A stretch of DNA of 64,000 nt from Candidatus Hydrogenedentota bacterium (GTDB lineage Bacteria > Hydrogenedentota > Hydrogenedentia > Hydrogenedentales > JAEUWI01): positions 15,354 to 79,353 of the forward strand of contig JAXMOL010000039.1 in assembly GCA_034669905.1 (NCBI GenBank). Direction: 5' to 3'. Below the pieces are notes generated by a model. That model had not been told where the DNA came from. It saw only the letters and a list, made by a program, of their open reading frames with translations, and ran no database searches. Of this stretch, positions 1-45,185 are shown one piece after another. The translations under genes were made by a program, and so were the position numbers. Each line of letters opens with the position of its first letter. The stretch's first letter is position 1.

Positions 1-2
1 AA

Positions 3-698
3 TCGAACACAGACCATTTCCGGAACCTGGAGGCCCTTTCGAAGGGGAGCTTCGGCCGCTATTGGACCCACAGTGATTCCCAGGAATTTGCGGCGACGGT
101 CCAGAAGATTCATGATATTAATCGCTCGGATTACGTGGTGAGTTTCCGCTCCTATGTCGACGTGGACGGTGGCCAGCATCCCTTTAAGATTGGCCTCGCC
201 TATCCGTCCAATACTGGACGCTTTATCTGGGAAGATGGCAACTTTGAAGCCATTGATTCACCGGCCCAATATATTCCCGAGACCCAGGCCAAGTACCAGG
301 CGACACAAGCATTGATTCCCGCGCTCGCCAACGCGTGCCCCTACGTAGGTTGCGCCCCTGCAGCCATGGCCGCGCCACCCGCCGCGGCACCTGCGCCTTC
401 AACAGCACCTGCGCCTTCAACAGCGCCGCCCGTCCCGGCAGAAGCGACTCCGGCCGCCGCGCCAGTGACGGAAACCGCAGATACGACTGCAAGTAAAGAG
501 GAAGAAGAAGAGAAATCCTTCCTGGAAGAAAATGGCGCCCTCCTGGGACTTGGGGCGGGTATACTTGCCTTGCTCATTGCCATTCTCAGCTGGGTCCGAG
601 GCGGAGGAGGCCCCAAGGGCGGCGGTGGCACGTCTCCCGGTGGCCGCCATTCGGCACCACGCCTGGGTTCTTCCTACGACGTTGATACCGAGCTCTAA
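3..698 (+). CDS. 5'-truncated membrane-anchored protein, probably VWA-domain, with Pro/Ala linker, C-terminal TM helix and Gly-rich cytoplasmic tail
   Basis: Frame is open from the window edge (SNTDHFRNLEALSKGSFGRYW...RSDYVVSFRS), resembling the C-terminal end of VWA domains; PAAAPAPSTAPAP linker; TM ALLGLGAGILALLIAILSWV. Confidence 0.6.
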   Translation, partial: SNTDHFRNLEALSKGSFGRYWTHSDSQEFAATVQKIHDINRSDYVVSFRSYVDVDGGQHPFKIGLAYPSNTGRFIWEDGNFEAIDSPAQYIPETQAKYQATQALIPALANACPYVGCAPAAMAAPPAAAPAPSTAPAPSTAPPVPAEATPAAAPVTETADTTASKEEEEEKSFLEENGALLGLGAGILALLIAILSWVRGGGGPKGGGGTSPGGRHSAPRLGSSYDVDTEL

Positions 699-5944: not shown

Positions 5945-7150
5945 ATGGCGTGGAATCAGTTCGGTGTACGTGGAAACTGGCAGGCAATCATCCCGGGGTT
6001 GTTAACCCTCTTGGTGGCAACGACGGCCCCGGCGGCGGATTATCCCCATCCGAAGGACCACCCCGAATCCACCTTGATGTTGACGGGGAAGTGGGTGCCG
6101 GAGAATACCCACGACATCGATTTCGATCTGCTGCCCCGCATTCCTTCGAAGCACACCGTGGTGAATGATGCGCGCCCTCATGATGGTGTGAATCAGCACA
6201 ACTATCTCGCCTTTTACGACGGCCAGTATTGGGCCATGTGGAGTGACGGTCCCCGTGTCGAGGACATGGCCGGTCAGCGGGTGAAGTACGCCACGAGTCC
6301 GGACGGCCTGGACTGGAGTGACGCCCAATTCCTTACGCCCATACCGCCCAATTCCGGGCCCGATTCGCCGGTCTACAATACGCGCTCCAAAGAGGGCTTT
6401 CGCTGGATTTCCCGGGGACTTTGGGTGCGAGACGGAAAACTGATTGCCCTGGCCTCCCTGGATGAGTCGGCGGGGTTCTTTGGGCCGAGCCTCGCCCTTC
6501 ACGCCTTTCAATACAATGGTGAGACCAAGGCATGGGACAGTCTTGGTGTGGTCTATGACAATGCCATTAACAACTTTGCGCCCAAGAAGATCCCGACTGG
6601 GGAGTGGATGATGACCCGCCGCACCTTCGACCGCCATGTCTCTTTTCTGGTCGGCGGTACGGAAGCCATCGATCAGTGGGAATCCTTTGAAGCGGTCTCC
6701 TACAGCGATTCCCGGTTGCTCGCCGAGGAGCCCTATTGGTGGGTGCTGCCCGACAAGAATCTGTTGGCCCTCTTCCGCGATAACAAGCGGAGTGGCTATC
6801 TGTTTCGTGCCTTCTCCACCGACAACGGACGCACCTGGAGTGACCCGGTGAAGACCAACTTCCCGGATGCTACGTCCAAATTTAACGGACTCCAGATGAG
6901 CGACGGACGTTATGTCCTGGTGTCCAATGCCAATCACGAAAAGCGCGACCCCCTCGTGCTTTCCATCAGCGACGACGGTATGGTCTTTAATAAGATGGGT
7001 TATCTTACGGGTGGCCGATGGATCGACTATCCCCACGTCATCGAACACGATGGCCACCTCCTCGTCGCCTTCGCCGGCTCCCGGAAACAGACCTGTGAAG
7101 TCTTGAAAATCCGCATCGCCGATCTGAGTGTGTTGGACGTGCAGGAGTAA
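5945..7150 (+). CDS. Secreted BNR/Asp-box (sialidase-like) beta-propeller protein
   Basis: Signal peptide; Asp-boxes TSPDGLDW, STDNGRTW, ISDDGMVF; terminal YPHVIEHDG motif. Confidence 0.8.
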   Translation: MAWNQFGVRGNWQAIIPGLLTLLVATTAPAADYPHPKDHPESTLMLTGKWVPENTHDIDFDLLPRIPSKHTVVNDARPHDGVNQHNYLAFYDGQYWAMWSDGPRVEDMAGQRVKYATSPDGLDWSDAQFLTPIPPNSGPDSPVYNTRSKEGFRWISRGLWVRDGKLIALASLDESAGFFGPSLALHAFQYNGETKAWDSLGVVYDNAINNFAPKKIPTGEWMMTRRTFDRHVSFLVGGTEAIDQWESFEAVSYSDSRLLAEEPYWWVLPDKNLLALFRDNKRSGYLFRAFSTDNGRTWSDPVKTNFPDATSKFNGLQMSDGRYVLVSNANHEKRDPLVLSISDDGMVFNKMGYLTGGRWIDYPHVIEHDGHLLVAFAGSRKQTCEVLKIRIADLSVLDVQE

Positions 7151-7157
7151 AGAAATG

Positions 7158-7354
7158 TGAAGTTTGAAGGGTGAAGGGTGAAGGGTGAAGGGTGAAGGGT
7201 GAAGGGTGAAGTCTTTGGCTCTAAATCCTCCACGCTTTCTATAAAACGCTTTCGTGCGCAGCTATTGCGAGGATACACCACCAGCCGAATTTCGCTGACC
7301 TCATCTTTCAAACTTCACGCTTCACGCTTCACGCTTCACCCATCACCCTTCAAA
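7158..7354. repeat. Two oppositely oriented heptamer tandem arrays
   Basis: (TGAAGGG)x6 at 7165-7206 with flanking variants; complementary CTTCACG/CTTCACC array at 7306-7354. Confidence 0.9.
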
Positions 7355-7370
7355 ACCGGAATGCCAATAG

Positions 7371-17405: not shown

Positions 17406-17433
17406 CCAAAGTGGGTTAGGCATCCTGCCTGAC
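17406..17433 (+). repeat. REP sequence, variant A (upstream of RAYT)
   Basis: CCAAA-GTGG-GTTAGGCA-TCC-TGCCTGAC, identical to copies at 18349, 18655 and 18962. Confidence 0.9.
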
Positions 17434-17606
17434 TAAAAATCCACGACACGTGTCGATGTAGACTAGCGGTCAATCACGTGGACTCGGAGATCGAGGAAGG
17501 TGGCGGGGAGGCCGCCTGACCCACGTTGACGTCCATTCTCAAGCGCTGTTTCGAGCGTAGGAATGCTCAAATACGGTGATATGGTGCCCGTCGGCGGCAG
17601 GAGCCA

Positions 17607-18281
17607 TTGAACAGCGATTCAATAGAGGAGTCCGAGCCGAGTCCAGAGTCTGATTCGCCTTTTCTGCGCCGAGACTCGCCTGTACGCAAAGATCGACGAC
17701 ATCTTCCTCATTGGCGTCTAAGCGGTTCCTTCAACTATGTGACGTGGCGACTCGCTGACTCCTTGCCCCAGGAGAAGTTCAAGGCTTGGGCGGAGCTAAA
17801 ACGTCTCTGGCTGCAGAAGAACCCCAAACCATGGGATACGCAGACCGCAGCCGAGTACGGCGAGCGCTTTCCCAAGCGGCTTGAAACATGGTTGGACGCG
17901 GGTTATGGCGCGTGTTTTTTGCGCAAACCGGAATGCGGCCGCATTGTTGCCAACGCGTTTCATTATTTTGATGGCGAGCGTTACGACCTGGCTTCCTTCG
18001 TCATCATGCCCAACCACGTACACGCCCTCTTTCAACTGCGAAGTGGATGGGAGATAGAAGATGTCAGCCATTCGGTGAAGAGTTACACCGCCAATGAAAT
18101 CAACAAGGTACTCGGGCGTCAGGGTGCGCTCTGGCAGCAAGAGGGATTTGACCACCTCCTGCGCGGTGTGTCTCACTTGGATCGGTGTCTTTCGTATATC
18201 CGAAACAACCCCACTGCAGCCCACCTGAAGACCGACGAGTATGTCTTCTATGAAGCGCCGGGTTTTGCAGATCTCCTGTGA
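17607..18281 (+). mobile_element. REP-associated tyrosine transposase (RAYT/TnpA-REP, HUH Y1 family)
   Basis: RRHLPHW..YVTWRLADSLP N-terminus, HUH motif IMPNHVH, WQQEGFDH, catalytic YIRNNP; flanked by REP hairpins; no tnpB. Confidence 0.9.
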
Positions 18282-18348
18282 TTCTCGACACCTGGCTTAC
18301 CATAGATGATTGGAGGGTGCGATGTGGTGCAGGGAAATCGAAGGTGTA

Positions 18349-19149
18349 CCAAAGTGGGTTAGGCATCCTGCCTGACACAGGGACACCCTGGGTTTACTGT
18401 GCGCTGTCGCCATGGCAAAGTTACGTTGAGTCCTGTCGTTGTGGCTTTCGGAGGCCAGTGCCTTGACACGTGACCCCACACGTGTTTGGGGAACCTACGT
18501 AACCGTTGTGTCAGCCTGGAAGGCTAACCCACTTTGGTGCTCGTTTCTTGAACAGCGTCACGGCAAAGTGACGTAAAACTCCAGCCAGGCGCGTCGTTGT
18601 GGCTTTTGGAGCCGAGGGGGCTTGTACAAGGTCTCCTCGGAAGTAGAAGGTGGACCAAAGTGGGTTAGGCATCCTGCCTGACACAGGGATACTCTGTGTC
18701 TAATGTGCGCTGTCGCCACGGCAAAGTGACGTTGAGCTCTGTCGTTGTGGCTTTTGGAGGCCAGGGTCCTGGTACGTGACCCCACACGTGTTTTGGGAAC
18801 CTACGTAACCGTTGTGTCAGCCTGGAAGGCTAACCCACTTTGGTGCACGTTTCTTGAACAGCGTCACGGCAAAGTGACGTAAAACTCCAGCCATGCCCCG
18901 TCGTTTCGACCTTCGGGGCCGAGGGGGCTTGTACAAGGCCCTCTCGGAAGTAGAAGGTGCACCAAAGTGGGTTAGGCATCCTGCCTGACACAGGGGTACT
19001 CTGGGTTTAGTGTGGGCTGTCGCCACGGCAAAGTGACGTTGAGTTCTGTCGTTGTGGCTTTCGGAGATCAGGGTCGTGTACGTGACCCAACGCGTGTTTT
19101 GGGAACCTACGTAACCGTTGTGTCAGCCTGGAAGGCTAACCCACTTTGG
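18349..19149. repeat. BIME/REPIN-like tandem array, ~306-bp period, three A/B REP doublets
   Basis: REP A (+) at 18349-18376, 18655-18682, 18962-18989; REP B (-) at 18510-18537, 18816-18843, 19122-19149; alternating linkers of 132-133 and 117-118 bp, similar but not identical between units. Confidence 0.93.
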
Positions 19150-38223: not shown

Positions 38224-38453
38224 TCGCCATGGGCTCGTCTGGCGTGGAATAGGCGTCCCGCGTGTCATGTCGTGACGTAAACCGTGAGCTGGCCGAAATC
38301 TTTGGGGTGCCGTTTTGAAGAGGGGGAGGGCCCCGACGTCCGGGGGGATATGCTGCGGGGAAATCTTTCTCGCCACCTGGTGGGTGTCAGGGCTGCTCCG
38401 TTTGCCGCGTCGGGGCAGTCTCCGCCTGCGGCGCGTCTTCGACCCGCCAGCGG

Positions 38454-45147: not shown

Positions 45148-45185
45148 CCCCCGTTGGCCAACGGGGGATAGGCTTCCAGCCTGTC
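45148..45185. repeat. Composite palindrome plus solo REP variant C
   Basis: Perfect 20-bp palindrome CCCCCGTTGGCCAACGGGGG overlapping by one base GATAGGCT-TCC-AGCCTGTC. Confidence 0.7.

Follow-up and report, generated by a model that had tools for sequence, protein, structure and literature searches.

A TnpA-REP gene of subclass 2.7 among its own GTGG-footed hairpins in a Hydrogenedentota genome

What kind of element is a lone Y1/HUH transposase gene that stands among short inverted hairpins in a Candidatus Hydrogenedentota genome, and do the hairpins belong to it? The window, that is, the whole stretch of DNA analysed, covers 64,000 nt of contig JAXMOL010000039.1. An earlier note on it had described a Y1/HUH gene with one REP upstream and three inverted REP doublets downstream at a period of 306-307 nt, and this arrangement is seen directly in the sequence. 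The RAYT (TnpA-REP) gene, of subclass 2.7 type, lies at 17607..18281 (+), has a TTG start and encodes 224 aa; it was assigned from its ORF, motifs, profiles, fold and homologues. A lactonase gene adjoins it on one side and a convergent beta-propeller gene on the other, and the array is situated between the convergent stop codons. A lactonase-RAYT fusion was rejected, as the two share a frame but stops intervene. Upstream of the gene, the hairpin REP A, CCAAA-flanked and GTGG-footed, is found at 17406..17433 (+), followed at 17499..17524 (-) by the probable decayed partner of the same doublet, which was recognised by its position in orthologues and keeps its foot and 5′ arm, the 3′ arm being broken. 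This upstream doublet is whole at 8 of 9 other close-clade loci and is down to one good REP here, so that the description of the REPtron as apparently intact holds for the gene and not for the upstream doublet. Downstream, REP A (+) and REP B (-) are read at 18349..18376 and 18510..18537 in doublet 1, at 18655..18682 and 18816..18843 in doublet 2, and at 18962..18989 and 19122..19149 in doublet 3, which brings the locus to seven good hairpins. The inner linkers of the three doublets, placed by alignment, are 18377..18509 (133 nt), 18683..18815 (133 nt) and 18990..19121 (132 nt). The outer linkers are 18538..18654 (117 nt) and, again by alignment, 18844..18961 (118 nt), and the doublet periods are 306 and 307 nt.

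Both hairpin types consist of a CCAAA-GTGG foot, an 8-bp stem with a T-G pair at position 3, and a TCC loop. Sequence and folding confirmed that REP A and REP B differ at four bases, which form two compensatory pairs at stem positions 6 and 8, and that the remaining elements are constant, as had been proposed. The four copies of REP A (+) are identical, CCAAA flank included, and so are the three copies of REP B (-). None of the 56 REP columns varies, compared to 22 of 133 columns in the inner linker (three copies) and 13 differences in 117 in the outer linker (two copies; Fisher p 3e-4), which bears out the contrast between identical hairpins and substituted linkers, with the caveat that the 22 inner-linker columns adjoining REP B are equally invariant. 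The inner and outer linkers have a common core of 62-72 nt in the same orientation (score 70, against 32 for the best of 1000 shuffles), situated in the window at 18408-18469 and 18556-18627. In a related strain, one contig (run X4; a single contig with 54 letters on its short side) joins the two linker cores, skips 466 nt and drops REP B; the run contigs came from 4 of 20 listed sequencing runs, and none spans the array. A genome search found the array linkers nowhere else, the REPtron locus gave no Rfam match at E 0.5, and no REP of the family lies inside the RAYT gene. The linkers had been called unusually long, a view that is not upheld, since the outer feet of doublets in congeneric REPtrons are 99-194 nt apart and the tandem arrays of Pseudomonas have spacings of 112 and 72 bp in the available text of PMC3116915. 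The presence of two covarying REP types had likewise been taken as special; in the accessible part of PMC6006769, several REP subfamilies flank nearly half of REPtrons, and its Table S1 holds a near-identical GTGG REP.

The protein carries the class 2 signature of an HUH motif and a lone tyrosine in Y-x-x-x-NP, here H137-V-H139 within NHVH and Y197-IRN-NP within YIRNNP. Y-x-x-x-NP is the signature of class 2 TnpA-Y1 proteins and Y-x-x-x-Q that of IS200/IS605 subclass 1.1 in the available text of PMC6006769. Across 34 aligned sequences chosen from 120 listed matches, H137, H139, W176, R186, Y197, N201 and P202 never vary, and the guide-contact positions are occupied by W176, Q177, D182, H183 and R186. 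The Pfam Y1_Tnp profile scored 33.8 bits (cut-off 23), the NCBIfam RAYT model NF047646 scored 61.2 bits, below its cut-off of 80, and the IS200 model scored 20 bits. NF047646 aligns to residues 107-207 only, because a two-helix insert splits the domain; the sub-cut-off score lowers membership of that model, not of class 2. In the predicted model (mean pLDDT 81.9) the insert occupies about residues 50-103, between the first strand and helix A. The best structural match to this model was E. coli TnpA-REP, 4ER8 (Z 14.1, rmsd 3.3, 140 aligned; Foldseek E 7e-6), and the next matches were IS608 TnpA (Z 12.2, rmsd 2.0, 101 aligned) and ISDra2 TnpA. Compared with its G004 orthologue, the gene has a dN/dS of ~0.12 and a dS of 1.28, near the 1.10 of the neighbouring gene; judged by these sequence comparisons, it is under purifying selection.

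Within class 2, the locus is a REPtron of TnpA-REP subclass 2.7, and published examples exist for each of its traits, the GTGG foot, the stem variants and the tandem doublets. The motifs of subclass 2.7, as far as Table 1 of PMC6006769 gives them, are [ND]HVH, WQ and YI[LR][NQ]NP with an HUH-Y distance of about 58-67 and D for E100; the protein here has NHVH, WQ, YIRNNP, an HUH-to-Y distance of 60 and D at the E100 position. Table S1 of the same paper contains 51 rows for 2.7, and one listed REP equals REP A, T-G pair and TCC loop included, but for one compensatory pair. Clustering with 2.7 was judged through proxies for the reference proteins, chosen by REPs identical to Table S1 rows and not by the paper's accessions. 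For this, 151 genomes of another order were searched for a listed 2.7 REP, which was found in two of them, each time around a RAYT gene (L258 and L259). The two proteins can be aligned along their full length, together with the insert (29% identity over 181 residues, E 1e-24), and score 116 and 104 bits on the profile of the present clade, on which the other Y1 groups of the genome reach at most 43. They also group with this clade with an SH-aLRT of 91 in a quick tree without bootstrap, as both of our trees are. A published Chloroflexota 2.7 REP was not found in 61 genomes searched. Subclass 2.4 was rejected, as it expects a variable insert separating HUH from Y, an HUH-Y distance of ~88 and REPs inside the gene. 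The profile and phylogenetic comparison proposed in the earlier note gives a RAYT/2.7 grouping and not one with IS200 TnpA, and its reading of the locus as a REPtron with a BIME-like array agrees with profiles, fold, flanking REPs and tree.

The known members of subclass 2.7 (PMC6006769, e.g. AFZ59732.1) have, in the published passages available, the same HVH, WQ and YI[LR][NQ]NP motifs with D at the E100 position, a median length of 213 aa, near the 224 aa here, and long canonical GT[AG]G-footed REPs, as here. The present locus differs from them, as they are described there, in its host phylum, its three-unit tandem array and its conserved CCAA flank. The two-helix insert does not figure in the accessible part of the published description, yet it is present in the proteins flanked by published 2.7 REPs. 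Only the classification paper was found for TnpA-REP subclass 2.7, and no paper pairing Hydrogenedentota with REP, in a search that had most subscription journals outside its reach.

REPs of this family were found elsewhere in the host genome. In its 7.4 Mb (G000), exact REP A occurs four times, exact REP B five times and the degenerate A/B pattern nine times, the nine matches answering the genome-wide count suggested earlier. A hairpin census without a fixed foot gave 60 cases of GTGG+G followed by an 8-bp stem, compared to 6-18 for 12 other tetranucleotides, and this excess indicates that the REP hairpins are not chance. A looser scan returned 82 matches against 13 and 18 in shuffles; 55 of the 82, with GTGGG[AT]T and a TC or TT loop start, were retained and 27 dropped. 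The subfamily with an A-T or T-A loop-closing pair comprises 29 REPs at 17 loci in seven variants, A and B among them. CC stands at -5/-4 in 28 of these 29, compared to 5 of 26 in a sister subfamily, and 21 of the 29 lie outside ORFs in a crude gene model covering 90% of the genome. REP A, the type adjoining the gene, is rare elsewhere (one near copy), and the commonest variant, with 11 copies, does not flank the RAYT gene. Since the search pattern partly sets the table of stem pairs, the independent evidence for the T-G pair is the hairpin census together with the congeneric loci. All nine genomes of the genus carry the wider REP family, at 29 to 221 copies, and a reversed control gave none. 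A dispersed relative in the window, with a GGGG foot and a CCAAC flank, was located by the genome scan at 45163..45185 (+; G000:C39:60516). The sister GTGG subfamily (26 REPs on C2, C8, C10, C13, C40, C55, C56 and others) closes its loop with G-C or C-G and lacks the CCAA flank. No RAYT lies beside its REPs in this assembly, and it is either an orphan family or one whose gene is missing from the assembly.

The flank of the hairpins bears on where the protein might cut. With a GTGG guide, cleavage fell at CC and at CA in the available text of PMC8266576, and the conserved CCAA flank contains both dinucleotides; of the suggestion that a GTGG guide predicts CC or CT cleavage, CC therefore stands and CT does not, the published sites being CC and CA. 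In G002 and G008, CC is found at -6/-5 in 47 of 59 REPs. G005 mixes GTAG and GTGG feet: CT precedes 9 of 26 GTAG feet and 4 of 9 GTGG feet, and CC at that position precedes none. No covariation of guide and cut site was seen in G005, its 5′ flank being independent of the foot.

Comparison of filled and empty sites gave two clean breaks among 16 junctions examined. At one site in G007 (L163), a 259-nt doublet insert absent from G000 is bounded by a 4-nt CCAA repeat, the left copy of which is the REP flank. At a second site, present in G002 and not in G008, the borders are a 3-nt TGC repeat, GCA on the other strand; both short repeats thus include CA. Deletion at microhomology explains the two breakpoints equally well. 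No clean break was seen at seven other G007/G000 junctions, at three further junctions and at four others. Most REP sites are common to G000 and G007, so that movement is slow at best. The expectation that arms would be more conserved than spacers at these common sites was not borne out: spacers differ by ~10% and flanks by 13%, and several of the REPs there are interrupted or decayed.

How REPs spread is still an open question in the accessible text of PMC8266576. By analogy with the systems in PMC3333891 and PMC8266576, as far as these describe them, the RAYT protein would bind the hairpin strand on ssDNA, cut via Y197 and transfer strands, and such transfer would let doublets be excised, inserted and locally amplified. 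The TnpA-REP proteins of E. coli and of group 3 suggest that H137 and H139 bind the metal, that a 5′-phosphotyrosine forms on Y197, and that the T-G pair, whose counterpart on the opposite strand is an A-C mismatch, helps the choice of strand. The host genome suggests the CCAA just 5′ of the foot as the preferred cut site. The three-unit array may have come from a single doublet that was amplified in place, either primed by the RAYT or through ordinary recombination; the linkers would then have drifted and the hairpins been kept. Collectively, we consider it quite probable that the gene encodes a conserved single-copy HUH/Y1 nuclease living among its own GTGG hairpins, which likely binds hairpin ssDNA, has CC or CA as its predicted cut site, selected by the GTGG guide, and likely spreads doublets in trans. 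We put forward only tentatively, and with more doubt than belief, the bolder proposal that subclass 2.7 is not non-jumping: the doublet-gene-doublet cassette would relocate, in keeping with its five or more sites in one genus and with in-frame positions inside essential genes of other phyla, CCAA would be a natural cut-and-join site, and the L163 pair of G007 and G000 would be a real REPIN insertion footprint. If true, that footprint would confirm the guide rule in a genome.

The distribution of the gene raises a related alternative, that the whole cassette is a slow autonomous transposon and not a domesticated gene that stays in place, the dispersed doublets being its non-autonomous derivatives and relics, which we regard as rather unlikely. 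The ten close-clade genes occupy five or more neighbourhoods within the genus, with two genomes holding two each, which counts towards a mobile cassette, but the assembly of the host genome (95.7% complete in 102 contigs, so that a second copy may be missing from it) has one copy, its nearest paralogue is 47% identical, and four congeners keep the same site with saturated synonymous divergence: in G002, G008 and one G005 contig the gene comes after the lactonase, and in G004 it comes before the downstream gene found here too. Nor was a cleanly empty cassette site seen on the 3′ side of the lactonase in any of seven congeners examined, the place being taken by a solitary doublet, a collapsed remnant, repeats of other families or an intron; the G007 assembly is missing this region. 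The gene is also nearly absent from plasmids (one of 72,556 records with a match, at 29% identity). At one of these lactonase-3′ sites (L117; G006:C101, bases 1-170, minus strand) the second REP breaks off within its arm, where the 5′ end of a group II intron follows (Rfam group-II-D1D4-6, E 1e-4; a truncated match below the gathering score). The inversion of the cassette between its outer REPs relative to one neighbour, seen on comparing G002 with G008 (L288 and L276), also suits a transposon, although host recombination at REP sites could shift the gene passively. Nested domains in the wider clade also count towards mobility. An open frame of at least 450 aa contains the RAYT domain at 28 of 110 loci, and all 17 scanned long frames are host genes with the domain inside, in frame (L003, L005, L008, L009, L011, L018, L021, L025, L027, L031, L035, L036, L039, L048, L062, L065 and L066). 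The host domains are LeuRS, CarB, PriA, a DinG-type helicase, HsdR, MmeI, Eco57I, DUF1156 and an oxidoreductase, and these nested relatives, at 37-48% identity, are scattered over the quick tree; the close clade, however, has no nested member.

The reading of the gene as a resident nuclease spreading doublets in trans has also to be set against a host role unrelated to REP movement, with an array produced by RecA-type recombination, slippage and selection on RNA hairpins between convergent genes. The position of the array between convergent stop codons, the capacity of ordinary recombination to make tandem units and the X4 contig in which linker cores are joined would all suit such a role, as would the open frame kept by the 47% paralogue (G000:C50:6687-7295), which has no flanking repeats. 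We nevertheless think it improbable. At each syntenic congener the REP stem differs, changing with the local RAYT, but the foot type, T-G pair and loop are constant, a behaviour described for RAYTs in the available text of 10.1101/2021.07.10.451892. All ten close-clade loci have REPs of the GTGG type flanking the gene on both sides, with an 8-bp stem and T-G as its third pair. Furthermore, the guide-contact residues kept here are changed in the REP-less paralogue (Q to H and R to H, at the Q95- and R104-equivalent positions), and the unpaired foot and CCAA flank are conserved although a plain terminator hairpin does not need them. An ordinary IS200/IS605 insertion sequence with accidental repeats is very remote indeed: the Pfam Y1_Tnp match and the rank of IS608 and ISDra2 TnpA next in structure speak for it, but the protein has the Y-x-x-x-NP signature and stands far from the genome's class 1-like proteins in the tree, no tnpB lies beside the gene in the ORF list of the window, and REPs are dispersed without the gene. 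The single copy and both trees rule out that identity. A subclass 1.1 element would show Y-x-x-x-Q, copies that are nearly alike and a short core, which the locus does not.

Of 80 named loci from the wider clade, the filter used gave 47 where a REP family flanks the gene at both ends, three where it does so at one end and 30 where it does so at neither; the feet are GTAG, GTGG, GGAG or GGGG. A third insert-bearing clade member in the host genome (G000:C18:119474-120315) has its own GGAG-footed REP family, with 16-mers in up to 27 copies.

Compared with E. coli TnpA-REP and its BIMEs (subclass 2.2; 4ER8; PMC3333891, in the passages available), the locus has the same fold and, by analogy, the same HUH/Y chemistry, and likewise inverted REP pairs of two subtypes, variable linkers and a conserved stem irregularity. 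It differs in having a GTGG foot rather than GTAG and an 8-bp stem with one T-G rather than a long bulged stem. The two proteins are 14-15% identical, and the one here has a 55-residue insert and is without a C-terminal tail like residues 160-161. The group 3 RAYT-REPIN systems of Stenotrophomonas, Marinomonas and Pseudomonas (subclass 2.5; PMC8266576 and PMC3116915, as far as accessible) have the same 23-nt REP with an 8-bp stem and 3-nt loop and the same head-out doublets with variable spacers and tandem clusters. Their stems, in contrast, are perfect and a mismatch harms cleavage (PMC8266576), whereas T-G is constant here, and their copies number hundreds against tens here. The GTAG-20 repeats of Opitutus terrae (Di Nocera et al. 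2013, PMC3733652), likened here by their description alone in the available text, mostly carry GTGG in place of GTAG.

As a single locus the REPtron is ordinary, and its use is as a test case for REP spread. Biochemistry was found for groups 2 and 3 only, in accessible passages and with most subscription journals outside the search, and the locus offers a natural GTGG guide, a predicted adjoining cut site and natural compensatory stem variants. It is also free-standing, in a clade with relatives that are built in frame into host proteins.

Two other repeats were noted. A 22-nt micro-insert with CC-like ends has 46 genome matches, against none for the reversed pattern, and occurs in the window at 38423-38444 and in G000 at C13:74585, C13:82512, C16:51630, C30:24738, C7:89292 and others. 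In GTGG REPs it occupies a single position of the 3′ arm, the G007 orthologues being intact in three cases; it is also found in several unrelated repeat families, with tandem runs in G001. It resembles the small dispersed repeats described by Elhai et al. (2008). IS110 was rejected as its source, the 95.7% complete genome giving no PF01548 match, and a lone box in REPs is not seen for ISPpu9 boxes in the published passages. At ~7150-7355 of the window lies a short repeat of another family, which matches many G007 contigs and has a period near 28 nt in those matches.
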